The notes under the pieces were generated by a model. The model ran no database searches, was not told the DNA's origin, and saw nothing but the letters and a program-made list of their open reading frames with translations. DNA of 63,926 nt, counting the filler, from an uncultured bacterium (GTDB lineage Bacteria > CAZSTA01): assembly GCA_964609495.1 (NCBI GenBank). It is 8 parts of 8 records of this genome, joined end to end, with 100 filler letters (N's around TTAATTAATTAA, not from the genome) between each part and the next. Parts side by side here need not be neighbours in the genome. Positions count along the whole stretch, not along the records: positions 1 to 8,966 come from CAZSTA010000156.1; 7 more parts are not named here. One strand, written 5' to 3'. Position numbers and translations under genes: made by a program. This document shows positions 1-17,914 of this stretch, in pieces (position 1 is the stretch's first letter; the number at the start of each line of letters is the position of its first letter).

Positions 1-38
1 CTTACGGCTGAATTTCCTTCTCTAAGTTTAATGCTCAT
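1..38 (-). CDS. 5' end of an unidentified gene running off the window (MSIKLREGNSAV...)
   Basis: ATG at 38-36 with AAGGAG RBS at 45-50; a sigma70-like promoter lies at 222-250 on the same strand. Confidence 0.55.
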   Translation of the reverse strand, partial: MSIKLREGNSAV

Positions 39-110
39 TGTTATCTCCTTACTATAATAGACTATTTTCGGCGCGTATCGAGGAAATGAGAGAAACAATA
101 AGAATTTCCC

Positions 111-215
111 TCAAATCGAGATCGGATACTTTCCGTATTTCTTCACCGCCTCGATCATCGCCTTATAATTCTCTAAAGATGCATAGTTTAGTAACTATTG
201 CTCGAGATAGCCTCT
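111..215 (-). pseudogene. Degenerate C-terminal remnant of a uroporphyrinogen decarboxylase (URO-D/MtaA-like) family gene
   Basis: Minus strand reads ...NYASLENYKAMIEAVKKYGKYPISI*, preceded by a frameshifted GY-SSNS, which resembles the family C-terminus; no start codon and an in-frame TAG upstream. Confidence 0.5.
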
Positions 216-221
216 CCCTAT

Positions 222-250
222 AGTATAACAGTATTATGGGTAAGTGTCAA
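222..250 (-). promoter_or_regulatory. sigma70-type promoter
   Basis: TTGACA-17 bp-TATACT on the minus strand. Confidence 0.6.
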
Positions 251-317
251 GCCTCTGGAAGTGGTTTTAGAGGAAATTTGACATTAAGCTTGGCATAACA
301 GTTATATCTTCAACAAT

Positions 318-346
318 AAAAAAAGACGGCAATCAGCATTCCGTCT
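318..346 (-). terminator. Rho-independent terminator of the first sugar ABC operon
   Basis: AGACGG...CCGTCT stem followed by a T7 run on the minus strand, downstream of 393..1268. Confidence 0.6.
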
Positions 347-392
347 AGTAGCCATTATACTATTTTTCAAGTAATAACATTCGATCAGTTTA

Positions 393-1268
393 TCACCCCT
401 TTAATCCAGTTAAAGTTATCCCCTGAATGAAATTTCTCTGAGCGAAGAGGAAAACTATTATAACCGGCAGAATAGCCATAACTGTCCCCGCCATTATAAG
501 GTTGTAGCTTATCGTTCCAAATTGCTGGGTGAATAAGACTAATCCTAAAGGCAGGGTTCTCTTATCTATATCCTCGATGACGATAACCGGCCAGAGGAAG
601 GAATCCCAATTCGCCATAAAGATGAAAATCCCCAGAGCCGAGAGAGCTGGCTTGGAGAGAGGTATTATGATATTCCAATATATCCTGAATTCTGAGCATC
701 CGTCTATTCGAGCCGCATCTATTAGCGATGAGGGAATGCTTTTCATAAACTGGCGCATAAGAAAGATCCCGAAGGCGCTCACTAAACCAGGTATTATTAG
801 AGCCCACAGGGTATTAGCTAGCCCTAGATCTTTAACTATGATGAAGATGGGTATGAGAACGACCTGAAAGGGGATCATCATAGTAGCTAAGATCAGTAAG
901 AAGAGCGTATCTCTGCCAGGAAACTCGAATTTGGCGAAGATATATCCAGCTAAAGAGCTACTGAATAGGGCTCCCGTAGTGACGAATGCTGCTACATAGA
1001 TGCTATTGAGAAAGAATTTGAAAAAAGGGACATCGTTTAATACTCTTATATAATTTGCGAGTCCCACCGGATCTTCAGGGATAAAAGTCGGAGGGAAGGC
1101 TATAGCCTCAAAAGAGGGTTTAAATGAGGTGGATATCATCCAGACGAAGGGAGTCAGCAGTATAAGTGCTATGATCACCGCTGATATATGTTTTAGGATC
1201 TCCTTAGTCGCTCTTAGCGCTGAGAACTTAACCATAATATTCCTCTCTTCTCTAGTCTGCGAGATCAA
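393..1268 (-). CDS. Carbohydrate ABC transporter permease (MalG/UgpE-like)
   Basis: Multiple TM helices and the EAA-loop motif IDAARIDGCSEF. Confidence 0.93.
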   Translation of the reverse strand: MISQTREERNIMVKFSALRATKEILKHISAVIIALILLTPFVWMISTSFKPSFEAIAFPPTFIPEDPVGLANYIRVLNDVPFFKFFLNSIYVAAFVTTGALFSSSLAGYIFAKFEFPGRDTLFLLILATMMIPFQVVLIPIFIIVKDLGLANTLWALIIPGLVSAFGIFLMRQFMKSIPSSLIDAARIDGCSEFRIYWNIIIPLSKPALSALGIFIFMANWDSFLWPVIVIEDIDKRTLPLGLVLFTQQFGTISYNLIMAGTVMAILPVIIVFLFAQRNFIQGITLTGLKG

Positions 1269-2176
1269 TACTCGAATTCTTCTCGGAAGTATCTAACCTG
1301 AAGAAAGGTAACAATGAATATAATAGCAAACAGAATGAATGCTAAGGCAGAAGCTTCTCCCATCTCAAAATATCTGAACCCAACATCGTAGATATGCATA
1401 ACTAAGACTCGAGTCGCTGTTCCTGGGCCTCCTCTGGTCATCACGAATACCTGAGTAAAGACCTGAAACGCTCCGATCATTCCAGTAACCATAACGAAGA
1501 GGGTAGTGGGCTTTAGAAGGGGCAGAGTTATACTTCTGAATAGTTTCCAACCTGAAGCTCCATCTACTTGAGCGGCTTCATAAAACTCCTTAGGAATGGT
1601 GGTTAATCCCGCTAAAAAGATGACCATAGTATATCCCACAGATTTCCATACGCTCATAAGGATGATGGAGGGGAGAGCTTGAGTGGTGGATGATAACCAA
1701 TCAAAGGGTCCCAATCCCAGAAATCCCAAGAAATAGTTTAGGATCCCGAACATAGGTTGATATATCCATACAAACATCAGGGACACCGCTACCATAGAGG
1801 TGATCACTGGGATGAAGCAGATGGTTCTCATTATCGCCTTAATTGGACCAAAGAAGCTGTTCACTAACAGAGCTAGCCCTAATCCTATTATTGTGCAGAG
1901 AGCAACATAGGCTACTGCATAATAGACTGTATTTTTCAAACTGATCCAAAATACAGGATCATTGAAAGCCAAGAGATAATTACCGAATCCGAAGAAAGGT
2001 TTTTCCCTTCCTAGCAGGGGCCATTTATGAAGGCTTATATAGAGGGCTGAAAAGACGGGATAGACTGAGAAGATGAAGAAGTAAATTATTATGGGAATTA
2101 ATCCTATAGCTATGAATATAAGGCGGCTACGTTTGATAGTCCCGTATCTCGCCCTCTTGCCTCTACTCTGAATCAT
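1265..2176 (-). CDS. Carbohydrate ABC transporter permease (MalF/UgpA-like)
   Basis: YEAAQVDGA motif, MTRGGPG, TM helices; overlaps the next gene by 4 nt. Confidence 0.93.
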   Translation of the reverse strand: MIQSRGKRARYGTIKRSRLIFIAIGLIPIIIYFFIFSVYPVFSALYISLHKWPLLGREKPFFGFGNYLLAFNDPVFWISLKNTVYYAVAYVALCTIIGLGLALLVNSFFGPIKAIMRTICFIPVITSMVAVSLMFVWIYQPMFGILNYFLGFLGLGPFDWLSSTTQALPSIILMSVWKSVGYTMVIFLAGLTTIPKEFYEAAQVDGASGWKLFRSITLPLLKPTTLFVMVTGMIGAFQVFTQVFVMTRGGPGTATRVLVMHIYDVGFRYFEMGEASALAFILFAIIFIVTFLQVRYFREEFEY

Positions 2177-2205
2177 CGTAACCTCCTCTTTATTTGAGAA
2201 CGGAT

Positions 2206-2241
2206 GAAAGGTCTAGGATTTTCATAGATCCTAGACCTTTC
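2206..2241 (-). terminator. Intercistronic hairpin after the solute-binding protein gene (mRNA stabiliser or partial terminator)
   Basis: 14-bp perfect stem GAAAGGTCTAGGAT/ATCCTAGACCTTTC. Confidence 0.55.
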
Positions 2242-2250
2242 TGGATTCAA

Positions 2251-3483
2251 CTACATAGAAGCTAGTTCTTTATTAATCTTTTCCTCAGCCGTCTTCAACC
2301 CTTCTTCTATCGTCAGCTCCTCGGCTAATATCCTCTCCAGCTCTCTACCGATGAGGACATCTACCTTCTCCCAGATAGGGACTCTTGAATAATAGATTTG
2401 AGCATGCTCTAAGGCGCTTCGGAAAGCATTTATCCAAGGATCATCTCTGAATTCTGGGTCCTCGAAGTTAGCCTTTCTGAAGGTGACGAAGCCTATAGTC
2501 TTAGCCATATCCAGGTAGTTATCATCATTGGACATAAAGTGGTTGAACTTCCAAGCCGCATCATATTTCGCTCCCTTAGCCTCGCTACTCACAACCCAGA
2601 ACCAGACATACATACTATCTACTTGCCTCTCTCCCTTAAGGGGAGGCAAAGCCTTATACCTCAAGTTAGGGTTGTTCTCCTGATAGAAGCTTCTCGTCCA
2701 GGGACCATTCCACTCCATAGCTGATTTCTCCAGAATAAATGCATCAGATAGGAATTTAGGATGAGCTAATTTGGTGTAGAGCTCAGTGGCTTTAATACCG
2801 GCCGGGCTATTGAAGGCAACGGCGGTGTTATCTGGATTCAGGAACTCCCCGTTCATACCGAAGAGAAGAGCAGTCCAGTGGATAACATTCCAGCTTCCGC
2901 TAATAGTAGTAGCTAGGGTAGTTCCTGCCTGGATCATACGACCCTTCTCATCATATTTATCCAACACCTTGTTGACTTCCAATAACTCGTCATAAGTGGT
3001 AGGAGGCTTAACTCCTGCCTCTTCGTAAAGTCTCTCATTGATGACCGGGGTAGGGATTCCAATATGCTGGACATAGGCATATATCTCATCACCGTATTCA
3101 GCACTGGATCCAGCTATCTCTACCGTATTCTCCTTGATATCTTGGACTACGTAGTCGGGTGCTGGCGCTATCCAATCGTTTTCGACCAATTGAACCATCC
3201 AGGGACCATAAACACCTATTACATCAGGAGCGGTGCCGGCCGAAAGACCAGTCAATATCTTGGTGTTCAAATCTGCATGAGGAACGGTGCTATAAATTAT
3301 CTTTACATTCGGATTTTCCTTCTCGAATGCTTTGGCTTGTTCAGTAAGCTTATCGTTCCAGGGCTTGTAGATGTGGCTTAGAAAGGTTAAGGTGACCTTC
3401 TCCTCAGCTCTAGCAAGCGGGATTGAAGTCATCAAAGATAAGACTATTGTTAGACAAACTGCTAAAGTTAATATCTTCTTCAT
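2251..3483 (-). CDS. Sugar ABC transporter solute-binding protein
   Basis: Signal peptide, FEKENPNVKI and GTAPDV motifs; upstream of two permeases. Confidence 0.9.
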   Translation of the reverse strand: MKKILTLAVCLTIVLSLMTSIPLARAEEKVTLTFLSHIYKPWNDKLTEQAKAFEKENPNVKIIYSTVPHADLNTKILTGLSAGTAPDVIGVYGPWMVQLVENDWIAPAPDYVVQDIKENTVEIAGSSAEYGDEIYAYVQHIGIPTPVINERLYEEAGVKPPTTYDELLEVNKVLDKYDEKGRMIQAGTTLATTISGSWNVIHWTALLFGMNGEFLNPDNTAVAFNSPAGIKATELYTKLAHPKFLSDAFILEKSAMEWNGPWTRSFYQENNPNLRYKALPPLKGERQVDSMYVWFWVVSSEAKGAKYDAAWKFNHFMSNDDNYLDMAKTIGFVTFRKANFEDPEFRDDPWINAFRSALEHAQIYYSRVPIWEKVDVLIGRELERILAEELTIEEGLKTAEEKINKELASM

Positions 3484-3657
3484 AGGTTTTCCTCCTTTTT
3501 AGATTTAACTACCTAATAAAAAAATCCTCCTCCCTAGAGGATAAAGTAAGAGATTATACATCTCACCTCCTTTACCTGATGGCTCAAAAATTTTTAAGTC
3601 CTTGCTTAGCGATCTATTCTCAATCTCTTGCTCTGGTACTCCACAGCCAGCCGAGAA

Positions 3658-3715
3658 GTGACGAACCAATCCCTTACCCTGAAGGCTAAGGGAACTTCAA
3701 GCCATTTTTCTATAA
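3658..3715 (-). repeat. IS200/IS605-type right-end-like hairpin remnant; partial second copy at 41077-41110
   Basis: Minus strand GAAGTTCCCTTAGCCTTCAGGGTAAGGGATTGGTTCGTCAC, a hairpin followed by TCAC; about 35 bp shared with 41077-41110. Confidence 0.4.
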
Positions 3716-3740
3716 AAACTGAGTTCGAATAGCAATATAA

Positions 3741-4628
3741 CTATCCCTTCAGTCCAGTCAAAGCTATGCCCTGGATAAAGGTCCTCTGAGTGAAAAAGAA
3801 GATGATAATAATAGGGATAGTTATAATTGTGGAAGCGGCCATCAACAGTGACCATTCTGTAGTATGGCCCGTCTGAAATTGCTGCAGTCCCAACGATATG
3901 GTATATTTAGACTCGTCGGTCAGATAGAGCAGTGGACCTATAAAATCCATCCAGGCATCTAAGAAACGGAACAGAGCTATAGTGAAGAGAGCGGGCTTAA
4001 CCAGGGGCAACATTATCCTCCAGTAAATGCCGAACTCCGAACAGCCATCTATCTTGGCGGCATCGGATAGCTCGTAGGGGATAGTCATAAAGAATTGACG
4101 CAGTAGGAATATGAAGAAAGCATTTCCGAAGAAGAAAGGAACAGTTAGAGGCTTAAATGTCCCTACCCAACCCATCTTCCTAAATACGATGAATAGGGGG
4201 ATCATAGTTACCTGGAAGGGAAGCATCATTGTGCTTAAAATTATGATAAATAATATATCTCGCCCTGGCCATCTTATTCGGGAGAAACTATAGGCTCCTA
4301 GAGAGCAGGAGATAAGCACCCCAACAGTGCTCGTCGCCGCGATAATGATGGTGTTCTTCAAATACGTGAAGAAGGGAATGAACTCCACCGCCTCTTTATA
4401 ATTAACCCACTTTATAGGATTTGGTATCCACTTAGGTGGGAAAAGGAATATCTGCTGATCTATCTTGAGGGAAGTGGAAACCATCCATATAAAAGGTAGA
4501 AGAAAGATAAGGCTACTTAGAATCAGGACTATATGAGCAACCACCTGCCCCGCGGTCTTTTTTGTTCTTGTCCTTCTCTTCATTGCTCTTATATCTTCGC
4601 GAGTTAAAGCGCCAGCTTTTATTGCCAT
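3741..4628 (-). CDS. Carbohydrate ABC transporter permease (MalG-like)
   Basis: LSDAAKIDGCSEF motif; ends FIQGIALTGLKG like its paralog at 393. Confidence 0.93.
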   Translation of the reverse strand: MAIKAGALTREDIRAMKRRTRTKKTAGQVVAHIVLILSSLIFLLPFIWMVSTSLKIDQQIFLFPPKWIPNPIKWVNYKEAVEFIPFFTYLKNTIIIAATSTVGVLISCSLGAYSFSRIRWPGRDILFIIILSTMMLPFQVTMIPLFIVFRKMGWVGTFKPLTVPFFFGNAFFIFLLRQFFMTIPYELSDAAKIDGCSEFGIYWRIMLPLVKPALFTIALFRFLDAWMDFIGPLLYLTDESKYTISLGLQQFQTGHTTEWSLLMAASTIITIPIIIIFFFTQRTFIQGIALTGLKG

Positions 4629-4729
4629 ATCTCAAATCCTCCGAAATCCCTAGATTGAAATTGGGGGAAGAATCTTCCCCTCAACCCTTTCTATATTAAT
4701 TATGACATTCGTGGTAAAAAATCTCAAAA

Positions 4730-5632
4730 TTACTTTAGAGCGCCCCCGTAATATACCCATCGAGCGGAACTCTTGAAGATGACCAAGGTGGAAGCTAAAA
4801 TTAGGAGAAATAGGATCCAAGCCATAGAAGAAGCATATCCCATCCTGAAGTAGGCGAAAGCGTTTCTCCATAGATATAGATTATAGAATAAGGTGGAATT
4901 GGCTGGGCCTCCTTCGGTCATAATGTAGGCTTGGGTAAATATCTGGAAACTGCCGATCAGTCCCATAATCAGGTTGAAGAAGATTACCGGAGTTATCATA
5001 GGAAGGGTGATGTGAATTGTCCTATTCCACCAATTAGCTCCGTCTAGCTCGGCCGCTTCATACATCTGTTCGGGGATATCCTGTAATCCAGCTAAGTAGA
5101 TGATCATTCCTCGACCGAATCCCCAAAGTCCCATAATAACTAGAGATGGTTTCGACCACTTCACATCAGCGATCCAGCCCGGCCCTTTAATACCAAATTT
5201 ATATAATATGGAATTTATCAAGCCAAACTGAGGATTTAATACCCACATCCATAATATCGAAGTAGCGACTATCGGGACTAAAGTCGGTAGGAAATACATA
5301 GTTCTATAGATAGCCATTCCCTTGATCTTCATATTTAAGAGAAGGGCTATCGCCACTCCCATAACTATGCCTAAGGGGACGATAAATACTACGTAGTAAA
5401 CGGTGTTATATAGAGAAACTCGGAATAGGTTATCCTCGGTAAATAACACCCGGTAGTTATCGATACCAGCCCACTCCGGTGGCTGAAGGACGTTATAGTT
5501 GGTAAAGCTGTAATACATCGAAGCGCATACTGGATAAAGGGTGAACATAAGAAGCCCTAGAATCATAGGGAGAGCGAACAACATCCCATTCCTGAGATCA
5601 GCTCGGGCTAATTTACTCATCTTCATCATCAT
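4730..5632 (-). CDS. Carbohydrate ABC transporter permease (MalF-like)
   Basis: YEAAELDGA and MTEGGP motifs, TM helices. Confidence 0.93.
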   Translation of the reverse strand: MMMKMSKLARADLRNGMLFALPMILGLLMFTLYPVCASMYYSFTNYNVLQPPEWAGIDNYRVLFTEDNLFRVSLYNTVYYVVFIVPLGIVMGVAIALLLNMKIKGMAIYRTMYFLPTLVPIVATSILWMWVLNPQFGLINSILYKFGIKGPGWIADVKWSKPSLVIMGLWGFGRGMIIYLAGLQDIPEQMYEAAELDGANWWNRTIHITLPMITPVIFFNLIMGLIGSFQIFTQAYIMTEGGPANSTLFYNLYLWRNAFAYFRMGYASSMAWILFLLILASTLVIFKSSARWVYYGGALK

Positions 5633-5661
5633 CTCTCACCTTTTTCCACTAGATTTAAGAA

Positions 5662-5691
5662 ACGAGCCTTTGCAAGGTAGCAAAGGCTCGT
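5662..5691 (-). terminator. Intercistronic hairpin after the solute-binding protein gene
   Basis: 12-bp perfect stem ACGAGCCTTTGC/GCAAAGGCTCGT. Confidence 0.55.
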
Positions 5692-5706
5692 CTATTTACT
5701 GATATT

Positions 5707-7008
5707 CTACTTGAACCACTTGTCCAGAGCCTTCTGGACATTGGCGGTTACATCGTCGAGAGCTTGCTGAGCGGTCTTCTGACCATATCTTGCATAGTCC
5801 TGAGCTTCTCTCAACTCATTCCACATCATGTCGCCCTCGGGGATAACAGGACGCCAGTGAGCGGTGGGTAGCAAACTCATAGCTAGAGCATGCTTAGGAT
5901 CTTCGTAGAAGTAAGGATCCTCAGCCGCTTTTTTGTTGGTGGGAATATGATAGGTATCTTTACAATATTCCCTCTGAGCATACTCTCCACAGAACCAACT
6001 GATGAACTCCCAGGCAGCTTCGAGCTTTTCCCCCTTGATTCCAGCGGGAATAACATGGGACCAACCACCAGCCCAGGTGCTATCTTTCTCTCCTCCGGGA
6101 GGAGAGGGGTTCGCAACTACGCCATAATCGAGATCAGGAGCGTATCTCTTAAGGTTGGCGAGCGTCCAGTCTCCGGTCTCCTGCATAGCGATCTGTCCGA
6201 TGATGAAGGGGTTCATAGCCTCGCCGCCGAAGGCTTTGCTGAAGCTCTCGATCGCGGTGACATCATACTTCTCGGCATAAGAAGCCATCCAATCCAGGGC
6301 GGCTACGATCTTAGGATCATTAGCGGTGATCTTGTGATTCTCCTCATCGTAGAAGTCGCCGCCGAAGACCCAGCCCCAGGTATAAAGCCAGCCTTGACCA
6401 TACCAGGGAATGAAACCGATCCTCTCTAATTTGCCCGCCTCATCGGCCTTAGTCAGCTTCTCGGCATACTCGTCAACCTCAGCGATGGTGGTAGGAGGCT
6501 TATCAGGATCTAGCCCAACTTCTCTGAACAATTCTTTATTGTAGTAGAAGAAGCGGTCGTCAGTATCCCAAGGCAGAGCATAAAGATGCCCCTCATAGTT
6601 AGCCTCCTGCCAAGCGAAGTTGAAGTAATCATCCTCGGTTACCCCCGCCGCTGCGGCGAGGTCATCCAGCATCGTCAGGGAGTCTCTAGCTGCCCAGGAA
6701 CCAACGACGAAGCGGTCGAAGTAATTAGCCTCTGGCGGGACTCCACCAGCGATAGCCGCTAGCAACTTCTCGCTGGACTGCATCCCAGCGGTGGTAGGAA
6801 CGTAGGTGGGTCTAACATCGATCCCTTTCTCCAATCCTACAGTGTTATTGAACTCAGTAACTAACCTTATGACAGAATCGTGATATATCCCACCACCAAA
6901 GTGATGCCAGTAGTTGACAACTACAGGTTTCTTCTCCTGAGCAGTTGCGATAGAAGTTAATGCTGCGATGATGAATAAGCAAGTTACCAATATAGCTATT
7001 TTCTTCAT
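5707..7008 (-). CDS. Sugar ABC transporter solute-binding protein
   Basis: Signal peptide; YEGHLYALP, YYNKELFREVGLDPDKPPTT and EAAWEFISW motifs. Confidence 0.92.
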   Translation of the reverse strand: MKKIAILVTCLFIIAALTSIATAQEKKPVVVNYWHHFGGGIYHDSVIRLVTEFNNTVGLEKGIDVRPTYVPTTAGMQSSEKLLAAIAGGVPPEANYFDRFVVGSWAARDSLTMLDDLAAAAGVTEDDYFNFAWQEANYEGHLYALPWDTDDRFFYYNKELFREVGLDPDKPPTTIAEVDEYAEKLTKADEAGKLERIGFIPWYGQGWLYTWGWVFGGDFYDEENHKITANDPKIVAALDWMASYAEKYDVTAIESFSKAFGGEAMNPFIIGQIAMQETGDWTLANLKRYAPDLDYGVVANPSPPGGEKDSTWAGGWSHVIPAGIKGEKLEAAWEFISWFCGEYAQREYCKDTYHIPTNKKAAEDPYFYEDPKHALAMSLLPTAHWRPVIPEGDMMWNELREAQDYARYGQKTAQQALDDVTANVQKALDKWFK

Positions 7009-7197
7009 TAGCTATTTCCCTCCTTTAATAAATTTTTTGGATCAAAAATTTTATGGGTTGGATACTAAAAGTTTTTCTTCCCGAATAATCACCTCCTTAT
7101 CAATTATAACCTGCCACTAAAATGGAATCTAGACTAGGTGATATCCGTCTTAATGGCTAATCTGATATTCCCTAAGAGACATGATGTATCTATTAGA

Positions 7198-7226
7198 ATT
7201 ATATAACATTTATATGGGTTTGTCAA
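7198..7226 (-). promoter_or_regulatory. Consensus sigma70 promoter of the second ABC operon
   Basis: TTGACA-17 bp-TATAAT on the minus strand. Confidence 0.75.
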
Positions 7227-7265
7227 GAGATTTAAAGTGTTTTGCTTGGAAGAAGTGAGAGCATC

Positions 7266-7601
7266 TTAATCTTTAACCTTAGTTAAAGTGAATTTTATCC
7301 CTCCCGAGGCACCTACTTCGACTCCAGTTCCCATCAAACCCACCCTTCCATCTCCCGTGATCTGAGCGGTAACCTCTATCTCCGATATCTCGAAGGCTCC
7401 GAGCCTAGCCTCCCCCGACTCCATGAGACCTCTCAAGTAGCTTAGAAATTGATTCATATTATCCTTGAGCTTGTCTATACTTACTTCGTTGATAATCCTC
7501 TCACCTATCCCTCTGACCGGTCTGCCTCTGGTAGCTCGTTCCTGCTCTTCGGCGTATAAATCGGAAATAATGATTATGCTGTCTTTTCCCTTTGCTTCCA
7601 T
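7266..7601 (-). CDS. Small Pepco/Trypco-like (peptidase co-occurring) protein
   Basis: 111 aa; amphipathic helix VSIDKLKDNMNQFL then Gly-rich beta strands FEISEIEVTAQITGDGRVGLMGTGVEVGASGGIKFTL; 17 bp downstream of a CHAT gene with its own RBS. Confidence 0.65.
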   Translation of the reverse strand: MEAKGKDSIIIISDLYAEEQERATRGRPVRGIGERIINEVSIDKLKDNMNQFLSYLRGLMESGEARLGAFEISEIEVTAQITGDGRVGLMGTGVEVGASGGIKFTLTKVKD

Positions 7602-7618
7602 CCATCATCCCTCCCCTA

Positions 7619-8965
7619 TCATTCTACTTTAGCTAAGGGATCACCATATAGAGAATAGGCAAGCCAAGTGGGATCGGAAGTCCCTTTTATTTTGTTCCTG
7701 GCTTCTCTGAAAGCTTCTCCCACCGTCATCCCTTGCCACAATCGCTCATAGAACTCCTGCGAAAAATCACAAGCTAATTTATCGTCAACCGACCACAGAG
7801 TCCCTACAAATATAGCCGATCCCGCTTTAATAAAGCGCGAGGCCCAGCCTCCGATCCCTGTCAGGGAGAAATCCGCGATCGAGGTTTGACAGGCGTTGAT
7901 GAAGACTAACGGTCTATTCTTCTTGCCGAATCTCATTCTTCTCCCGGCTATATCCATCGGCGTCAGTTCCCCGTCCTCCATATATATAACGGAGAGATCG
8001 GGATTATTAGAGTTATACTCACCATGACCTGCAAAGTGTAGGAGATCGAATCCCCCTTCCTCCAATACATCATAGACGCTCATCATATTAGGTATAATAT
8101 CGGATACAACAGCTCCTCTATTTTTGAGAGCATTCAGATACTCCTTCTCCCTCTTAGCATTCTCTAAGCCAGCATCAGGGATTATCATATTTATATAGGA
8201 TAACCTGAGAGTGGAGGGAGGAGCTTTCCCCAAGATCCAGCGAGAGAAAGAGAAGCGCTCGCACATAAATTCATCCTCTTGATAATCGTTCTCGGTCTCT
8301 CGATAGGGCTTCAGTATCTCCCAGGGGATCCAGGGTTCCTCGGAAATAACCATTATACTCTTTATCTTATCTCTGATCTCCCAATAGATATCCTTAACCT
8401 CCTTGGGAAGAAGTTGCTCGTAGAGATTTAATCCGATACCCGCCAGCTTCTTCGCCACAAGGGGAGGAGAATACTCTCTCTTTCTCCCAAGTTCCTCTAA
8501 TTCCCTTCTCATCTCCTCGATCCACGCCAGCGGTGGTTTGAAGATCGTCTCCCCGCACTTGCGAAAGGGATAGAGAGCTAATTCCTCCAACGGAGAAAAG
8601 AGAGTAAATTCATATCTCATTTGTCCTTCCTCTACTTCCCTCTCCTCTATCATTATGGTGAGATCTGGTGGTCTATATATTCTCTCCACCTCTATGTCAT
8701 TATGAATCTTGCTCTCTTTAGTTTTCGCTTCCACCTCTTCTTTAACTACAATCGTCTTTAAACTGCTCTGACCCACATACCGTCCATTCTGGAAGAACTC
8801 AACCTTTATCTCCTTCTCACCTAATTGTCGAGGGAATAAGTTGAATATTATAGGCGAAGAATCTCCTTCTCTAGGGACTTTTAGAGGACGATAGTAATCT
8901 TCCTCTATCTCGAAGTCTTCCGCTGATACATAAGCATAGATGATAATATCCTTAGTAGCATCATC
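7619..8965 (-). CDS. CHAT (caspase-clan) protease with an upstream Ig-like (TCAD7-like) segment; 5' truncated by the contig end
   Basis: Catalytic dyad LLHFAGHG and VFINACQ, plus PWIPWE and GTLWSVDD; frame stays open upstream of 8776 to the contig end (DDATKDIII...LKVPREGDSSPIIFNLFPRQLGEKEIKVEFFQNGRYVG). Confidence 0.88.
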   Translation of the reverse strand, partial: DDATKDIIIYAYVSAEDFEIEEDYYRPLKVPREGDSSPIIFNLFPRQLGEKEIKVEFFQNGRYVGQSSLKTIVVKEEVEAKTKESKIHNDIEVERIYRPPDLTIMIEEREVEEGQMRYEFTLFSPLEELALYPFRKCGETIFKPPLAWIEEMRRELEELGRKREYSPPLVAKKLAGIGLNLYEQLLPKEVKDIYWEIRDKIKSIMVISEEPWIPWEILKPYRETENDYQEDEFMCERFSFSRWILGKAPPSTLRLSYINMIIPDAGLENAKREKEYLNALKNRGAVVSDIIPNMMSVYDVLEEGGFDLLHFAGHGEYNSNNPDLSVIYMEDGELTPMDIAGRRMRFGKKNRPLVFINACQTSIADFSLTGIGGWASRFIKAGSAIFVGTLWSVDDKLACDFSQEFYERLWQGMTVGEAFREARNKIKGTSDPTWLAYSLYGDPLAKVE

Positions 8966-9066
8966 ANNNNNNNNNNNNNNNNNNNNNNNNNNNNNNNNNN
9001 NNNNNNNNNNTTAATTAATTAANNNNNNNNNNNNNNNNNNNNNNNNNNNNNNNNNNNNNNNNNNNN

Positions 9067-10774: not shown

Positions 10775-12946
10775 TCAACTCCTTTCCTCAAAATTTATGA
10801 TAACTCCATCTTTGGCTCTCATAAATAGGACTGGAATACCCCAATCTCGTCTCCCAGCGCCGAAGTCGATATATATCCCTCTCCTCGCCTCCGATATCGC
10901 AGCATCCACTGGATAACCAATCCCGAGAGAACGATAGAACTCCTGAGAGAATTTGAGAGCGGTATCATCATAGATATTATACTGCATAGCTACTACCGCT
11001 GGTATCCCCCTTCGCACTATATTGGGCGCGATCCCTATAAATGGCTTGAAGGGAGAGCTAGTTGCTCCTTCACAAGAGTTTAGGACGACTAATCTCACCT
11101 CGCTATCCAAGAATAATTCTCGGAAGAGCTTATCGCTGATAAATCTGGCGGTGTGATCCTCATTCTCTATCACTAACTCCGCTTCCTTCCCCTGAAAATA
11201 TCCATGCCCAATGAAGTGAAAGACGTGAGGATGAAAACGACGAATCTTATCTCTTATCTCGCTGGCGATAGCATTATCTAGAAATTCTAGCTTCACTATA
11301 TCCTTCTGCTCCCACTCAGTTAGAGCCTCCTTCATTATCCCCCTCTCCTTATCAGAATCAAGGGAGGAAAGGCGATATTCGGCTAGATCGGTGGGATTGG
11401 AGATTACAACTAGGAGATGAAACGGATGAGAGGTTTGTAAAGGTCTGATCGATTCTGATACTTCGATATAGCGAACCAGCGGGATCTCCGTTGAAACTGC
11501 GAAGAATCGTTCATGGCGTTTATCATAGAGATATTCCCAGGGGAGATAAGATAACTCTGGAGAGGAGAGACGAAGGCGAATACGTAACCCTCTTCCCCTT
11601 CCCTGAGCCCACCCTAAGCTGTTACGGTAGAGATCCTCTATCTCATCAGGGAACAAGTACTCAAAGAGCAATTCTCCAAATTCGGTTAATAATCGTTCAT
11701 CAGTCTGACCATATTCGATCATAGAGAGCATATCTTGAAAATCAGAGGATTCGTAGTCAAGGGGAAGAAATCCTTTCGCATTTCCTCTGGGAGATTCGAT
11801 GACATGAATTGGATAGCCCTTCCCTCCCTTTTCTCCCACTAGGATTTCAAAATCATAGTATTCCCACTGCTTTTGAGAAGGAGGAGTGATAATATCCACT
11901 GGTCGGAGAAATGATCTATTCCACGCTTCATTATATATTCCATTACGAATAACGCAATTCCCGTCTTCTCCAGCGCGGATTATTCCTATTAACTCTAAAC
12001 GCTCCAGGATAGGATCGGTGCGGCTAAAACGCACTGGCTTCCTTCCCGAATTTATCTCGTGAACCTTCGCCAAATCGGAAGGAGATAGCTCCCCCAGATG
12101 GCGCATTATATGTTGTAAATTAACATCCCCTTCCCGATGTAGCCGAGCTACCACAGAATCAACTAGGGAGCTATCCACTTTCATATCTGGAGAGTCGAAC
12201 AGCGTATCCTCGATCAGACTCCCTAGGCGTTGAGTAAGATAGGGATGACCTCCAGTCCAATGATATATACGATCTATAACCTCTTTGCTTATCGTTATTC
12301 CTCCCTCCTCAAATCCCATCCTCAGAAGTTTCTCCACCTCCTCTCGGCTGAAGTCAGTTATGTAGATTTGCTGGGTGATGTTCTTAAGCGGAGAAACCTC
12401 ACCGTTCATCAGTTTCTGCATATCAGTGGCTCCGCTGAAGATAAACACAAGCTTCTTGAAGGCTATTTTGAGCTGCCTCTGAGTGAAGGCGGAACGAGCG
12501 GTATCGGCGATACTATGAGCGTTCTCTGAGCTTAATCCTCCCATCTCATCGAGCATAATGATTATACGAGGAACTTTGCTGATCCTGCTTATCTCGCTTA
12601 GGAAATAGAGAAAATCCACTCCAGTTGTGGTCCCTAGATCTATTGGCTCATCTAAAACCTTCCCGAGTTGGGCTTTGATCTCCTGACATAAGCTCCGATA
12701 AAATTGGGCGTTGCTGAGACCGGTGAAGGATTGAAGATCTATGAAGGCAAAGCTATATCTATTTTGCAAGAGGGATCTCAGCTTGAGAAGTAAGCTAGTC
12801 TTGCCAGTCTGCCTAGAGCCTAAAACGATGACATAGTTACTAACTAACTTTATCCATCGCTCCAGATTTCTCAGCTCTTTTTCTCTTCCTATGAATAATT
12901 CTGGCTCTACCGGACCATAAGTAATAAACATATCTTCCCTCTTCAA
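10775..12946 (-). CDS. STAND-type ATPase fused to a C-terminal CHAT protease
   Basis: FIGREKE, Walker A GSRQTGKTS, Walker B IMLDE, WTGGHPYLTQ; CHAT motifs LPWEYL, VFHFIGHG, LVVLNSCEG, AVVAMQY, DWGIPVLF. Alternative ATG start at 12931. Confidence 0.9.
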   Translation of the reverse strand: MKREDMFITYGPVEPELFIGREKELRNLERWIKLVSNYVIVLGSRQTGKTSLLLKLRSLLQNRYSFAFIDLQSFTGLSNAQFYRSLCQEIKAQLGKVLDEPIDLGTTTGVDFLYFLSEISRISKVPRIIIMLDEMGGLSSENAHSIADTARSAFTQRQLKIAFKKLVFIFSGATDMQKLMNGEVSPLKNITQQIYITDFSREEVEKLLRMGFEEGGITISKEVIDRIYHWTGGHPYLTQRLGSLIEDTLFDSPDMKVDSSLVDSVVARLHREGDVNLQHIMRHLGELSPSDLAKVHEINSGRKPVRFSRTDPILERLELIGIIRAGEDGNCVIRNGIYNEAWNRSFLRPVDIITPPSQKQWEYYDFEILVGEKGGKGYPIHVIESPRGNAKGFLPLDYESSDFQDMLSMIEYGQTDERLLTEFGELLFEYLFPDEIEDLYRNSLGWAQGRGRGLRIRLRLSSPELSYLPWEYLYDKRHERFFAVSTEIPLVRYIEVSESIRPLQTSHPFHLLVVISNPTDLAEYRLSSLDSDKERGIMKEALTEWEQKDIVKLEFLDNAIASEIRDKIRRFHPHVFHFIGHGYFQGKEAELVIENEDHTARFISDKLFRELFLDSEVRLVVLNSCEGATSSPFKPFIGIAPNIVRRGIPAVVAMQYNIYDDTALKFSQEFYRSLGIGYPVDAAISEARRGIYIDFGAGRRDWGIPVLFMRAKDGVIINFEERS

Positions 12947-15900
12947 TTATTGGCTAATTTCAGCTCGATAAGTATCCCTTAGACTCTGAAGTAAAATTTC
13001 CACATCCTCGCTCTCCTTAACGATCTCCGGGAAATATCCCAGGGTGTAGCGATAACCTCTCCCCACCCTGGTGAAGACCGGATATAACCGAAGCGTTACC
13101 AAAGCCTCATCTATCGCTCGTTTATCGGTAATCCCCAGCTTTGCTAACTCCTCCTGTATATCGCTCAGATCGAACTCACTTCTATCTATCATCACCAAGC
13201 TGACTATCTTCTCCAGTGGATTCGACTCGCCCCACACCGTCTCCTTGTAATATTGATGAAAATCAGCCTCGCTTATCACCTCCTCTACATCATTTAAGGT
13301 TATACGTCTCTCCGAGATATTCCCGATCACCCTCTCGCAGATCGACTGCACCAGGTTGGGATGAAGCGATGATACCTCCAGTATCCTATCCACGATCTCC
13401 TCTCCCTCTTGCAACTCGATCCCCATATCGCTCATCGGTCGCTCTATGCTCTCTCGGGCGCTCCTTTCATCGAGACAGCCCAAGATGATCTCCTTGCCGA
13501 AGTTGAAGAAGGGCGAGGAAGGATCGTGCACTCTTCGATATAATGCTTTTCCTCCGCAGAAGATATAACGGCAGATTTCCTCCTGAGACATTGATCTCAT
13601 AAGTTTAAATAGCGCCTCGTTATTCCTCGTATCATAGGTAGCGATAGAATCTACCTCATCAAGGAGGAGGATCAAAAGCTTATCCCCTAACTCGCCCTTG
13701 ACCTCTCTTATCAGTTTGCGAAAACCTGGGAGATTATGGGCGAAATCCTTCTCCAACTGAGCACCAAGCATATCGAAGAAATCCTCATAAGTACTCACAG
13801 GCTGGCAATCAAGATAGAAGGAGTGATAGCGTGGATCGGCGGTGAATCTGCGATTAACCTTATGTAAGATGGAGGTCTTACCGATGCGACGCCCTCCCAC
13901 TAAGATGAAATCATTGTTCTTGATCGTTTGAGTAATCGTCTTGAGCTCGTTATTCCGACCGAAAAACATATTATCAGGAACAGGACCTCTCGTCACAAAG
14001 GGCGATACTAAGCTCAATTCAACCTGATCCAGGATGATATCGACCAGTTTGATATTGGTATCCTTTACCTTGATGATATTGAGTATCTCATGTCTTCCCA
14101 AAATTATGAAGTCGTAGGAATAAGGCGAATTATCGATCAACCTCCCTAACTCGACTACGTTATTCACCAGCGAGTTGGGATCCTCGAGGACAACGAGGAG
14201 AGCAAAGAAATCGGACATCTCCATCAGATTCATAAACTCGGCTAACTCAACTATTATCTCTCCATCTCCGAATCCCTCTCGCTGAATGAAGATCACCGGG
14301 AAGCGAGGCGGCACTCGTAAACGCAAGGTTGGAGCTTCTACTACATAGGCGAACATTCGTTTGAAGGTAAACTCTTCTACCATCCTCAACCCCAAAACAC
14401 TACTCAATACCTCGATAATCACGAGCGAATTATCCTGAAAGGTCTTGAGCTGATCGGAATCTTTTCCTGGTAAGACTTCCATCATCTTCTCCCAAGCGGA
14501 GAGCAAGGGTCGAGCGCGATCGGCATTTCTGAGGCTCAATTCCCCCCTGGAATAGCTCAGAGCTTCCTCATCTTTATGCTCATCATAATATCTTTCTAAC
14601 GCATACTCCCTGAAACCACCAGGAATCGCCTTGAGAAGTCGAGCGGATACCCGAACATTTTGCAGAACAGCCTCTTCTATTATATGCTCCCAGTGACCCC
14701 AACTGCGCTCCACATAGCGACCTCCTAAGGCAAGGATTAATTGTTTGGGATAACGAGGTAATTTTAAAGCGGTGATGAAGTGAATATTATTTGGTCGAGC
14801 TACGAAGAAATAGAGGAAGAATGGACCACCAACAAAGATCAGAAATAATAAAATCGAGCCTATATAGTAGAGAGGATTTAGGGGGCGAACTAGTTTAGGA
14901 TTGACCTGTCCTCGCCAGATGCTAAGTCCATCGGTAGCCGCATAAATCAGCGTATTATTCTCAGGATCGATAGTTAGGTGATTGATGGAGATATTACTCA
15001 AACCACCATCCTGCCAGGTCTCCCCTCTATCTAAACTGATGAGCATACCTTCCCTAGAGCCAGCATATACTACCTTAGGATTACTCCTATCAATTGCCAA
15101 AGTTCGCACATATCCCGAAACTACCTTTCTCCAACTCTCCCCTCCATCAGTGCTTTTGTATATTCCTCCTTCTACTCCTGCATAGAGGGTATTTGGCTGT
15201 CGAGTATCCGATACTAGAAAATAGGTTTTGATATTCGCCAATCCCTCATTTTTTGAGCGCCAAGCTTCTCCTCTATCCTCGCTCTTGAAGATCCCTCCAC
15301 TCGTTCCCGCATAAATGATATCGGGATTCTTTGAATCCACCACTAGCGAATAGACGATAGTCTCAATTACTCCTTTGCCGAGAGAAACACGTTTTTTCAC
15401 CTTTCCCTCTTCAATTCGACAGACCTCGCCTTCATAAGTTCCAGCATAGATGATATTGATATTATGAGTATCTATAGCTAAGGAGTAGATGACTGAGTTC
15501 AACAGGTCTGAGCAAAGGGATTCCCAATCATGTCCTCCATCATTACTCTTGAGGACTCCGCTTTCCGTTCCTGCATAGATCGTCATTGGATCTTGAGGAT
15601 CTAGCATAAGAGAATAGACGATCGTATCCTTTAGGGATTCGCTAGCGATACTCCAAGTGATCCCTCTATCAACGCTTTTGAAGACCCCATTCCCATAAGT
15701 TCCCGCATAAACAACCGTTGGATCATCGGGATCTAAAGCTAGAGAGTAGATAACATTATTAGTTAATCCTGCGCTGATCGTTTCCCAGGTCTCATTCCTT
15801 CTGAAGATCCCTCCCCAAGTTCCCGCGTAGAGGACATTTGAATCCTTAGAATCTTTTGAATCCTTGCGAGCTATAGCCAAAGAGTAAACTCTATTATTTG

Positions 15901-17737
15901 TTAATCCCTCGCTGAAGGGAATCCAATTATCGCCTCCATCATCGCTTCTGAAAACGCCCTTCCAAGTTCCCGCATAGAGAGTACTAGGATCACCAGCATC
16001 ACTAAGAAGTGTATGGACGAACTTATCTTCTAAGCCCTTATTGATCTTCTCCCAATTCACCCCTCCATCCTTACTGCGGAATATCCCTTCGCCGTATGTT
16101 CCGGCATATATAATATCAGAATTCTCAAGATTTATTGCTATAGAGTAAATTCTGCTCTTTATAGTAGCTCCGCTTATACCGATCCAATTTTCTCCTCCAC
16201 CAACTGCCTTGAAAATCTCTCCATTTACCGTTCCTGCATAGATGATGTTTGACTCCTTACCATAGTTGTTGGGAGATATAGCTAGAGAATATATATCAGT
16301 AGGAAGTTTGCCCACAACCGACCAATTGTTGCCTCTATCATAACTTTTAAAGATAGTTCCTCCTCTAGTAGCGACATAGATTATATCGGAGTTGAGGGGA
16401 TATATAACTAAAGAATAAACATAGAGGCTAGTCAAGCCTTTGTTAATCACATTCCAGGTGGCTCCTCGATTGATACTCTTAAAGACTCCTCCTCCTAATG
16501 TTCCCGCATAGATGATATTAGGATTATTGTGATCGATGGCCAGACAATATACTCTGGTATTAGTTAATCCCTCGTTTATTGCATCCCAACTCTCCCCTCC
16601 ATCGCCACTCTTAAAGACTCCTCCTCCCCAAGTTCCTACATAGATCACCTTTGGATCTTGGGGATCGATAGCTAAAGAATAGACTCTGGTATTGCTTAGC
16701 CCCTCATTCCTCGCCCTCCAAAGAAGTCCTTTATCCTCACTTTTGAATATTCCTCCATTCGTTCCCGCATATACCATCTTAGGATCCTTGGGATCTATGA
16801 TTAGATCATAAACGCTAGTGTTCGTCATCCCCTCGGAGGCTAAATCCCACCTACTACCACCATTGATACTCTTGAAAACTTTACCGTCATCGGTTCCAGC
16901 ATATATTATATCTTGATCTATCGGATCTATAGCCAAAGTATAAATATTGGTGCTAGTCAACCCCTTGTTGACAGAATCCCAACTCGCTCCCTTATCAATA
17001 CTCTTAAAGACGCCACTCCCCTGAGTTCCAGCATAGACGATATTGGGATTCTTAGGATCTATGGCTAAGCAATAGACGAAGGTATTAGATAATCCCTTAT
17101 TCACCGTTATCCAATCTTCGCCTCCGTTGTTGCTCTTAAATATTCCTCCTCCATAAGTAGCAGCATAGATGATCTCAGGATTATTCGGATCTATCGCTAG
17201 GGAATACACTATGATATTAGTTAATCCTTTATTAATCGCCTTCCAATTGGTCCCGAAATTCTCGCTTTTGAATACGCCACCTAGAGTTCCAGCATAGACA
17301 GTGGATGGATTTTGGGGATCGATAACCAAGGAGTAAACATATAAAGCTGTCAATCCCTCACTGCTAGCCGACCAGATATTTCCCGCATCGCGACTGATGA
17401 ATATCCCACCTCCCCAAGTTCCCGCATAGATGATATCAGGGTTCTGGGGACCAATAGCCAGGGAATAGATCCTACTATCCGTCAGACCCTTATTCATCAC
17501 ATTCCACATCTGCCCACCATCGCCACTCTTGAAGACATCTCCCTCCCTAGTGCCAGCATAGATAGTATCAGAATTTTGGGGATCGATAGCCAAAGACATG
17601 ATAACACCGCTGTAAAGGGCAGTCTGATCCCATATTATCGGCTTCTCTTGTGGTGATGAATCCGCTGAACAAGGGATGAGAAGTGCCGCGATTAGAAGAG
17701 GAAATATTAAGTTTTTGATAAAATCGACTCTTCTCAT
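12947..17737 (-). CDS. Membrane receptor: signal peptide + 21 Asp-box (BNR) beta-propeller repeats + TM helix + cytoplasmic STAND ATPase
   Basis: Likely start ATG 17737 (MRRVDFIKNLIFPLLIAALLIPCSA); repeats VYSLAIDPxxPxIIYAGTxGGxFKSxDGGxxW; TM YYIGSILLFLIFVGGPFFLYFFVA; SPFVTRGPV..MFFGR, Walker A GGRRIGKTS, Walker B LLLDEVD. Confidence 0.88.
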   Translation of the reverse strand: MRRVDFIKNLIFPLLIAALLIPCSADSSPQEKPIIWDQTALYSGVIMSLAIDPQNSDTIYAGTREGDVFKSGDGGQMWNVMNKGLTDSRIYSLAIGPQNPDIIYAGTWGGGIFISRDAGNIWSASSEGLTALYVYSLVIDPQNPSTVYAGTLGGVFKSENFGTNWKAINKGLTNIIVYSLAIDPNNPEIIYAATYGGGIFKSNNGGEDWITVNKGLSNTFVYCLAIDPKNPNIVYAGTQGSGVFKSIDKGASWDSVNKGLTSTNIYTLAIDPIDQDIIYAGTDDGKVFKSINGGSRWDLASEGMTNTSVYDLIIDPKDPKMVYAGTNGGIFKSEDKGLLWRARNEGLSNTRVYSLAIDPQDPKVIYVGTWGGGVFKSGDGGESWDAINEGLTNTRVYCLAIDHNNPNIIYAGTLGGGVFKSINRGATWNVINKGLTSLYVYSLVIYPLNSDIIYVATRGGTIFKSYDRGNNWSVVGKLPTDIYSLAISPNNYGKESNIIYAGTVNGEIFKAVGGGENWIGISGATIKSRIYSIAINLENSDIIYAGTYGEGIFRSKDGGVNWEKINKGLEDKFVHTLLSDAGDPSTLYAGTWKGVFRSDDGGDNWIPFSEGLTNNRVYSLAIARKDSKDSKDSNVLYAGTWGGIFRRNETWETISAGLTNNVIYSLALDPDDPTVVYAGTYGNGVFKSVDRGITWSIASESLKDTIVYSLMLDPQDPMTIYAGTESGVLKSNDGGHDWESLCSDLLNSVIYSLAIDTHNINIIYAGTYEGEVCRIEEGKVKKRVSLGKGVIETIVYSLVVDSKNPDIIYAGTSGGIFKSEDRGEAWRSKNEGLANIKTYFLVSDTRQPNTLYAGVEGGIYKSTDGGESWRKVVSGYVRTLAIDRSNPKVVYAGSREGMLISLDRGETWQDGGLSNISINHLTIDPENNTLIYAATDGLSIWRGQVNPKLVRPLNPLYYIGSILLFLIFVGGPFFLYFFVARPNNIHFITALKLPRYPKQLILALGGRYVERSWGHWEHIIEEAVLQNVRVSARLLKAIPGGFREYALERYYDEHKDEEALSYSRGELSLRNADRARPLLSAWEKMMEVLPGKDSDQLKTFQDNSLVIIEVLSSVLGLRMVEEFTFKRMFAYVVEAPTLRLRVPPRFPVIFIQREGFGDGEIIVELAEFMNLMEMSDFFALLVVLEDPNSLVNNVVELGRLIDNSPYSYDFIILGRHEILNIIKVKDTNIKLVDIILDQVELSLVSPFVTRGPVPDNMFFGRNNELKTITQTIKNNDFILVGGRRIGKTSILHKVNRRFTADPRYHSFYLDCQPVSTYEDFFDMLGAQLEKDFAHNLPGFRKLIREVKGELGDKLLILLLDEVDSIATYDTRNNEALFKLMRSMSQEEICRYIFCGGKALYRRVHDPSSPFFNFGKEIILGCLDERSARESIERPMSDMGIELQEGEEIVDRILEVSSLHPNLVQSICERVIGNISERRITLNDVEEVISEADFHQYYKETVWGESNPLEKIVSLVMIDRSEFDLSDIQEELAKLGITDKRAIDEALVTLRLYPVFTRVGRGYRYTLGYFPEIVKESEDVEILLQSLRDTYRAEISQ

Positions 17738-17760
17738 AATTTTCTCACCCAATTGTTTAG

Positions 17761-17914
17761 ATAAAGGAAACTTTTGCAGGCAACAAAACTCAAGGTTCAA
17801 AAGTTTCCTTTACACCCTCCCCTAACCCCTCCCATCAAGAGAGGGGGAAATAAAGAGAGCAGTCTTATCCCAGTGTCCCCTCTCCCCTCGTGGGAGAGGG
17901 ATAGGGTGAGGGGG
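17761..17914. repeat. Composite REP-doublet element (15-bp hairpin + REP-A + linker + REP-B)
   Basis: TAAAGGAAACTTTTG/CAAAAGTTTCCTTTA hairpin, then CCCTCCCCTAACCCCTCCCATCAAGAGAGGGG, then CCCTCTCCCCTCGTGGGAGAGGGATAGGGTGAGGGG. Confidence 0.85.

Follow-up and report, generated by a model that had tools for sequence, protein, structure and literature searches.

A predicted two-gene death module composed of a CHAT protease and a Pepco protein in an uncultured bacterium

Introduction

The closest described counterpart of the system considered here is the Pepco module of Streptomyces subrutilus, in which the 117-amino-acid protein SsPepco is encoded upstream of the trypsin-like SsAvs4 protease (Evans et al., 2025, bioRxiv 10.1101/2025.11.14.688446). 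According to that report, SsPepco is a pre-assembled β-barrel toxin that forms heat- and sodium dodecyl sulfate-resistant 9-10-mers, and SsAvs4 removes from it a 2 kDa C-terminal tail by a cut after Ile97. This cut lies at an Ile-Arg junction near the C-terminus, and an Ile rule is reported for serine-protease-linked Pepcos; the exactly truncated protein kills E. coli, its toxicity depends on the exact end, and mutations in its amphipathic helix (L10, E15, L17) abolish toxicity. Here we describe a gene for a CHAT protease and an adjoining gene for a Pepco protein that are present in a stretch of DNA of 63,926 nucleotides, filler included, from an uncultured bacterium (NCBI GenBank assembly GCA_964609495.1); this whole stretch is referred to as the window.

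A second point of reference is EACC1, a protein family that was defined together with Trypco1 and Trypco2 and whose central element is described as a conserved transmembrane helix (Kaur et al., 2020, PMC7159879). A caspase-like protease is reported to remove an inhibitory N-terminal fragment from EACC1 by a cut after Asp49, assembly occurs only after cleavage, and the removed fragment appears to block the toxic C-terminal part via strand pairing (Evans et al., 2025). Both the Pepco and the EACC1 module that were tested show a response to phage proteins, and Pepco is given as the most abundant protease-associated effector (Evans et al., 2025). Our literature search on Pepco yielded no relevant paper beyond these two studies.

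We consider it probable, with moderate confidence, that the pair in the window is a two-gene death module in which a multidomain CHAT protease is combined with Pepco, a latent membrane-permeabilizing β-barrel former that would be cut after Arg30. This reading builds on the membership of both proteins in their families, on the intact catalytic dyad, on the coupling of the two genes, and on the conserved motifs and the layout of the locus, all of which are observed here. Protease-dependent cleavage, the β-barrel oligomer and toxicity are carried over from what is reported on the homologous module (Evans et al., 2025), and would apply to the window pair by analogy.

Results

A CHAT protease with an intact dyad, truncated at the end of its contig

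In the window, contigs of about 9 kb each are strung together, and the CHAT-Pepco pair sits on the first of them (bases 1-8966). The following features define the pair and the end of its contig.

7619..8965, minus strand: CHAT cysteine-protease gene (clan CD, caspase-like), 5'-truncated, 448 amino acids kept, stop codon 7619-7621
7622..8359, minus strand: CHAT catalytic α/β domain, amino acids ~203-448, borne out by the conserved dyad and the Craspase motif alignment
8036-8038, 8024-8026 and 7889-7891, minus strand: CHAT catalytic codons of His310, His314 and the catalytic Cys359, respectively
8747..8965, minus strand: all-β domain, amino acids 1-73, from the AlphaFold2 model, in the place where relatives have DUF7363; the contig end has removed its first strands
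7602..7618, minus strand: intergenic spacer of 17 nucleotides, TAGGGGAGGGATGATGG, with the Shine-Dalgarno-like GGGGAGGG inside, as read from the sequence
7266..7601, minus strand: Pepco gene, 111 amino acids, stop codon 7266-7268, with a match to PF24393; predicted protease-licensed pore-forming effector
8967..9066, no strand: artificial contig joint consisting of Ns and the linker TTAATTAATTAA at 9011-9022

The protease possesses the motifs LLHFAGHGE and FINACQT and matches the Pfam CHAT model PF12770 with an E value of 9.4e-22 (78.2 bits against a cut-off of 24); its matches to Peptidase_C25 (E 1.5e-09) and to the caspase family are weaker. In an alignment of 69 sequences, comprising the window protein and 68 of the 150 best relatives listed, His310 and Cys359 are invariant and His314 is conserved in at least 90% of the members, and the His and Cys motifs align with HGE and AC of the CHAT chains in the Craspase structures 8d9h and 8d9f. 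The AlphaFold2 model of the protease has a mean predicted local distance difference test (pLDDT) score of 90.6. When this model was compared by Foldseek with the PDB, the best match was the TPR-CHAT protein of Craspase (8d9f; E 5.9e-14) at about 15% sequence identity, and further fold matches comprised SAVED-CHAT, separase, the CHAT anti-sigma factor DdvA, gingipain R, and caspases. An earlier assessment made from the DNA alone, which we refer to as the sequence-only reading, had described an intact CHAT protease, and these data agree with it: the His/Cys dyad is intact, and the protein is predicted to be an active protease.

No NCBIfam model matches the CHAT protein or Pepco. Weak PADLOC matches in the catalytic core of the protease were obtained with BovA (E 3e-06) and SAVED_CHAT (E 0.005); we take BovA to be part of the Borvo system.

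Since the CHAT frame is open up to the last real base at 8966, where it meets the Ns and TTAATTAATTAA, the gene is cut by the contig end. The linker occurs in seven copies in the window against 0.02 expected by chance, and the sequence past 9066 belongs to another contig, so that its neighborhood with the CHAT-Pepco pair cannot be assumed. An exhaustive search with the protease returned 30092 representative clusters at E <= 0.001 and 1807 at E <= 1e-30. Relatives with a length of 600-1000 amino acids cover residues 5-447 of the query, beginning with their own residues ~290-330, and it follows that about 300 N-terminal amino acids of the window protease are missing; the loss of the sensor part at the contig end had been foreseen in the sequence-only reading. 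We considered whether the CHAT gene truly begins with the GTG codon at 8776 and rejected this because relatives align upstream of this position. A tblastn search with the 150 listed relatives did not find the 5' part of the CHAT gene as an open reading frame (ORF) at a contig end in the other contigs of the window; its matches outside the CHAT gene were a second CHAT gene (10.8-11.8 kb) and the mid-contig sites 20840-21604 and 62237-62557.

The remaining N-terminal portion begins with residues 1-73, which are all β in the AlphaFold2 model (strands 7-14, 18-20, 25-30, 43-45, 49-59, and 62-73), in accordance with the β segment that had been proposed upstream of the catalytic domain. Between this segment and the catalytic domain lie more strands and a helical bundle. 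In relatives, DUF7363 (PF24063) occupies the position aligned with the β domain of the window protein; it was not detected in the truncated window protease itself, even at E <= 10. TCAD7 (PF19973), which had been put forward as a lead from the DNA, is indeed present in 39 of 120 protease relatives among the matches listed. Other N-terminal modules among the relatives listed are EAD1 with pentapeptide repeats, VWA, Ser/Thr kinase, zinc ribbon, TPR, and FHA, and the closest relatives (45-46% identity, among the matches listed) lack TCAD7 and have either no Pfam domain in this region or EAD1 with pentapeptide repeats. As the N-terminal modules differ among the relatives, the lost sensor of the window protease cannot be named.

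The 111-amino-acid neighbor belongs to the Pepco family

The small protein matches the Pfam Pepco model PF24393 with an E value of 3.5e-19 (69.8 bits against a cut-off of 27), its residues 33-108 corresponding to model positions 36-112 of 112, and PF24393 is the only Pfam family found for it at E <= 1. A profile search with it returned 95 relatives at E <= 0.001, and PF24393 is matched in all of them; the length is 111-113 amino acids in 66 of the 94 relatives whose sequences were read. The scores obtained with the hidden Markov models exclude a chance match for both CHAT and Pepco. For all counts of conserved residues we relied on an alignment of 75 rows, consisting of the window protein, 73 of the 95 relatives, and the protein of a gammaproteobacterial locus (L001) described below; 22 relatives were omitted, namely fragments, gene calls extended at the N-terminus, and a 77-amino-acid call of the window's own protein. 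PF24393 is matched by all 75 rows. The nearest clusters in the ESM Atlas are Pepco clusters (score 0.93), with Cyanobacteriota as the commonest named phylum, and just one of the 588 frames of the window is Pepco-like. Judged from its sequence, the 111-amino-acid protein is a true Pepco, as had been suspected beforehand, and no unrelated family appears at E <= 1.

The version of the window Pepco in the protein database has 77 amino acids and starts at residue 35 (7266-7499). We rejected this version, because conservation among relatives includes the N-terminal 34 residues and its start is hence placed too far downstream. Within the full-length protein, four features are of importance for the proposals made below.

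7500..7601, minus strand: conserved N-terminal extension of Pepco, amino acids 1-34, with the hydrophobic strand 8-14 followed by a low-confidence linker
7509..7523, minus strand: R27-P-V-R30-G31, the window version of R-x-E-R-G, located in the disordered linker; putative cleavage site
7419..7478, minus strand: amphipathic helix of Pepco, amino acids 42-61, from the AlphaFold2 model, aligning with the N-terminal helix of Trypco2
7278..7406, minus strand: Gly-rich β region of Pepco, amino acids 66-108, with a nearly invariant GGIKFxL motif and the basic residue 108

In the AlphaFold2 monomer, strands are formed by residues 8-14, 35-41, 74-81, 87-89, and 101-107 and a helix by residues 42-61, while the linker 16-32 has pLDDT values below 50 and was read as disordered. 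The sequence-only reading had described a helix and a Gly-rich amphipathic hairpin. The helix is amphipathic, with a hydrophobic moment of 0.52 that was equaled by 0.7% of 2000 shuffles; polar and hydrophobic residues alternate in strand 74-82 (moment 0.77, reached by 0.9% of the shuffles), and eight of the 19 residues at positions 83-101 are Gly. The remaining strands show no significant amphipathicity in the shuffle test. A fold search of the Pepco model against the PDB gave no match at E <= 0.001, a tblastn search of a plasmid collection with Pepco gave no match, and none of 28 pattern matches in viral contigs was confirmed with the 75-sequence alignment.

Both ends of the protein are conserved. 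In the N-terminal strand, I9 is present in 66 of the 75 rows, and positions 10 and 11, which are mostly L (56/75) and V (58/75), are hydrophobic in at least 97%, with I at both positions in the window protein. The R-x-E-R-G motif in the linker is represented by R27 in 64, E29 in 68, R30 in 73 (the other two rows having K), and G31 in 70 of the 75 rows; the window Pepco has V at position 29, where the family has E. At the other end, G100 is found in 75/75, I102 in 69/75, and K103 in 68/75 rows, and position 108 is K in the window protein and R in most relatives. In the 70 of 75 rows in which GG[IV]KF was found, this motif is followed by 6-11 residues, seven of them in the window Pepco.

Gene coupling and neighborhood

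After the stop codon of the CHAT gene (7619-7621) the next ATG is at 7601, which confirms the distance of 17 bp at which the 111-amino-acid gene had been placed. The two genes are probably co-transcribed, to judge from this arrangement. A promoter agreeing with the sigma-70 consensus at 12 of 12 positions (TTGACA-17-TATAAT) is located on the minus strand at 7226-7198, 3' of the Pepco stop codon, and precedes an ORF for a binding protein with its start at 7008, after which come two ORFs resembling permeases of ATP-binding cassette (ABC) transporters. The position of this promoter between Pepco and the ORF at 7008 indicates that CHAT and Pepco form a unit of their own and that the downstream ORFs are transcribed separately.

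The visible flank of the module on its contig extends over 7.3 kb on one side only. On the minus strand at 393-7008, it contains two tandem cassettes, each made up of a binding-protein-like ORF (~410-430 amino acids) and two membrane-permease-like ORFs (~290-300 amino acids). Judged by eye, these look like sugar ABC importers, that is, ordinary metabolic genes and not a defense island. Rfam found no RNA family in the window.

The second CHAT gene mentioned above is part of a different system on another contig of the window (10775-17800, minus strand). There, a protein of 1617 amino acids, which has Sortilin/BNR-type β-propeller repeats and, C-terminally, a STAND-like ATPase, borders on a 723-amino-acid AAA_35/ATPase-CHAT protein, the stop of the former adjoining the start of the latter at 12947/12946. 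This system has weak PADLOC matches to PDC-S27 and SAVED_CHAT, and no small effector gene follows it; the next gene encodes a xylose-isomerase-like triose-phosphate isomerase (TIM) barrel.

Pepco and its partners in other genomes

Scans of genomes and of metagenomes for Pepco loci yielded one locus each, one in a gammaproteobacterial metagenome-assembled genome (L001) and one on a metagenome contig (L002). Both encode Pepco orthologues with 51-53% identity to the window protein, situated directly upstream of a gene for an 825-amino-acid CHAT-CHASE2 fusion, which is followed by a FecR-like gene. This gene order is the reverse of that in the window, where Pepco is downstream of CHAT, and the CHAT core of the fusion is 31% identical to that of the window protease over 134 residues. 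Because architecture, gene order and sequence differ to this extent, the pairing of Pepco with CHAT is kept across two protease contexts. Downstream of the pair, L001 (10811-13859) also carries genes for FecR-like, response-regulator receiver, and SIR2_2-domain proteins, which could be a larger signaling or defense neighborhood.

In a sample of 401 Pseudomonadota genomes, three had a match to PF24393: the L001 genome, one in which Pepco adjoins a patatin-like phospholipase, and one in which it lies at a contig end. In the patatin-adjoining locus (L006, 7989-12393 on contig C71 of genome G102), a 129-amino-acid Pepco (PF24393, E 7.3e-14) is encoded directly downstream of the phospholipase, and upstream of the latter are genes for two proteins of 407 and 415 amino acids without a Pfam family and for a 136-amino-acid coiled-coil protein. 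This may be a Pepco module without a recognizable peptidase.

Comparison with described systems

With SsPepco, the window Pepco shares its size (~110-117 amino acids), the lack of an enzymatic domain, the position of its gene beside that of a protease fused to a sensor, the combination of an amphipathic helix with a β-hairpin, and the expected logic, in which proteolysis would license a β-barrel pore. The comparison of layouts relies on the text of Evans et al. (2025) and on the Trypco2 proteins that we retrieved. It also reveals differences. The partner of SsPepco is a trypsin-like protease, whereas that of the window protein is CHAT, a cysteine protease; the SsPepco gene lies upstream of the protease gene and the window Pepco gene downstream. 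The helix of SsPepco includes residues 10-17, whereas that of the window protein starts at residue 42 after a conserved extension of 34-41 amino acids, and the charged or proline-rich tail of ~20 amino acids present in SsPepco is absent from the window Pepco.

The sequence-only reading had also called the small protein Trypco-like. No match of the window Pepco to the Trypco2 (PF19631) or Trypco1 (PF19493) models was obtained at E <= 1, and among the 75 rows direct matches were weak and rare (Trypco2 in two, at E ~0.03, and Trypco1 in one). However, hhalign aligned Pepco residues 50-106 with Trypco2 positions 11-58 (probability 74%, E 2.7e-05), and the aligned part takes in the helix, the first strand, and GGxKF. 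This indicates that the core of Pepco is common to Trypco2 and upholds the resemblance at this level; residues 1-34 of Pepco lie outside the aligned stretch. One ESM Atlas cluster mixes Pepco (82% of its members) with Trypco1 (11%). Our comparison set of Trypco2 consisted of 10 proteins from Pseudomonadota genomes, nine of which have a large ORF with an LTARH motif directly downstream; Trypsin_2 was matched by five of these nine ORFs at E <= 0.001, one of the five scoring above the cut-off. In Trypco2 the helix is at the extreme N-terminus and 40-50 residues follow GGVKFWV, neither of which holds for the window Pepco; the layout of Trypco2 agrees with the description given for SsPepco (Evans et al., 2025).

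EACC1 and its caspase-like protease resemble the window pair in that a small non-enzymatic protein is encoded beside a protease of the caspase superfamily, and the removal of an N-terminal fragment from EACC1 is the logic proposed here for Pepco; no family link by sequence with Pepco was found, as only PF24393 is matched at E <= 1. The window protease has the CHAT fold and the dyad in common with TCAD7/EAD-DUF7363-CHAT proteins, with the TPR-CHAT protein of Craspase (Csx29), with SAVED-CHAT, and with BovA, but the window locus is devoid of a CRISPR or cyclic-oligonucleotide-based antiphage signaling (CBASS) context. Bacterial gasdermins, to which the pair had been likened from the DNA, are comparable in functional logic, as an adjacent caspase-like protease frees a pore former by one cut (Evans et al., 2025). 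The comparison does not extend to the protein itself: gasdermins are unrelated to Pepco in family and size, with no gasdermin family matched at E <= 1 and no fold match in the PDB at E <= 0.001.

Discussion

The data reported here lend themselves to a model in which a signal, most likely phage infection, would be sensed via the missing N-terminal module of the protease and would switch on its CHAT domain. The activated protease would cut Pepco at one specific site, and this cut would relieve autoinhibition, so that an oligomeric barrel with amphipathic helices could perforate the cytoplasmic membrane and the cell would die before the invader spreads. That the small protein is both substrate and effector, and possibly forms a β-barrel, had already been proposed from the DNA; support for this idea comes through the homologous Streptomyces system (Evans et al., 2025). 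We infer from this homology that the window pair might behave likewise, and the position of the cut and a role in defense are put forward in the same spirit.

Some clan CD relatives of the protease, such as gingipain R and separase, cut after Arg. A basic motif that is conserved and lies in a disordered linker is what one would expect of a processing site when the neighboring protease belongs to clan CD, and we propose that cleavage takes place after R30 in the R-x-E-R|G linker. The N-terminal strand (amino acids 1-30) would thereby be removed and an 81-amino-acid core of helix plus hairpin would be left. Several considerations point to an N-terminal site. R30 (73/75) and G31 (70/75) are situated within the linker with pLDDT values below 50; the few residues that follow GG[IV]KF leave the window protein without a counterpart of the 2 kDa tail at the C-terminus of SsPepco; and a caspase-like protease is reported to take an N-terminal fragment off EACC1 (Evans et al., 2025), which may serve as a precedent. 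Taken together, the CHAT neighbor, the lack of a long C-terminal tail, and the conserved N-terminal strand and linker lead us to place the cut in the R-x-E-R-G linker. As a tentative generalization, which we regard as possible though not as the likelier outcome, the CHAT-paired Pepcos of PF24393 might carry their safety catch at the opposite end of the protein, with the N-terminal strand restraining the core and an Arg-directed cut at R-x-E-R|G freeing it.

A number of observations weigh against our reading. The sensor domain of the window protease is missing past the contig end, so that the trigger cannot be named. The AlphaFold2 monomer of Pepco is only moderately confident (mean pLDDT 66), and no PADLOC model matches Pepco. 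The CHAT-linked contexts that we examined number three (the window, L001, and L002), the latter two being of the same type, and in one of the three Pepco loci found among the sampled Pseudomonadota genomes the neighbor is a patatin-like phospholipase, which tells us that Pepco is not always beside a peptidase. SsPepco, as reported, is cut C-terminally, after Ile, and by a serine protease, so that its analogy with the window Pepco does not hold residue for residue. Finally, a basic residue at position 108 is present in all 75 rows, which makes a short C-terminal trim an equally simple site; no result obtained here decides between a cut after R30 and a trim after residue 108.

The nearest alternative keeps the module and moves the licensing cut to the C-terminus, where the last 3-6 residues would be trimmed after the basic residue 108 or a cut would fall at I102-K103; in that case the N-terminal strand would belong to the barrel structure, and activation would parallel that of SsPepco. 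The conservation of residue 108 (basic in 75/75), I102 (69/75), and K103 (68/75) speaks for it, as does the SsPepco site itself, an Ile-Arg junction near the C-terminus with toxicity depending on the exact end (Evans et al., 2025). We nevertheless consider it unlikely, because the residues after 102 are part of the predicted strand 101-107 in the core common to Trypco2, the tail past residue 108 amounts to only ~3 residues, and the Ile rule is reported for Pepcos linked to serine proteases. A more far-reaching departure from cleavage after R30 would be that Pepco is not a substrate at all and instead acts as a membrane-associated partner, regulator, or inhibitor, with the CHAT protease killing via other targets or via an effector encoded elsewhere. 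A sensor role was first proposed for the analogous EACC1 (Kaur et al., 2020), a caspase-like protease that defends without an associated effector is mentioned by Evans et al. (2025), and the Pepco beside the phospholipase fits such a role; but SsPepco and EACC1, both of those tested so far according to the same report, were cleaved toxic effectors, and the conserved basic motif in the disordered linker of Pepco has the looks of a processing site. We regard this explanation as the least probable of those weighed here.

The biological role of the cassette can be questioned independently of the cut. Rather than acting against phages, it might bring about cell death during development or under stress, or take part in kin conflict, its host being a multicellular or filamentous bacterium. 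Conflict systems of this kind are reported to be enriched in multicellular prokaryotes (Kaur et al., 2020), and the named source organisms of relatives include Anaerolineae, Oscillochloris, and Ardenticatenaceae; the neighbors on the contig are sugar ABC-transporter genes and not a defense island, and the searches of viral contigs and of the plasmid collection brought up no relative. Against this stand the response of the tested Pepco and EACC1 modules to phage proteins (Evans et al., 2025) and the fact that a mere 7.3 kb on one side of the module are visible, which leads us to think a role other than phage defense distinctly improbable, if somewhat less so than a Pepco that is never cleaved.

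In bacteria, protease-licensed pore formers correspond to the caspase-gasdermin type of cell death, and the locus adds to them an example of a CHAT-linked Pepco from an uncultured bacterium. As this type of module has been described before, the contribution is a correct annotation and not a discovery; the sole element that may be new is the proposed N-terminal, Arg-directed licensing site. About 70 Pepco relatives share the N-terminal strand and the R-x-E-R-G linker, whereas the experimental model is linked to a serine protease and cut C-terminally. If the linker were the cleavage site, a specificity would be defined for a large CHAT family (1807 representative clusters at E <= 1e-30), and it would show how one effector core has been adapted to two protease classes. 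If the safety catch of the CHAT-paired Pepcos indeed lies at the opposite end, one and the same pore-forming core would have been wired to these two classes through permuted pro-segments.

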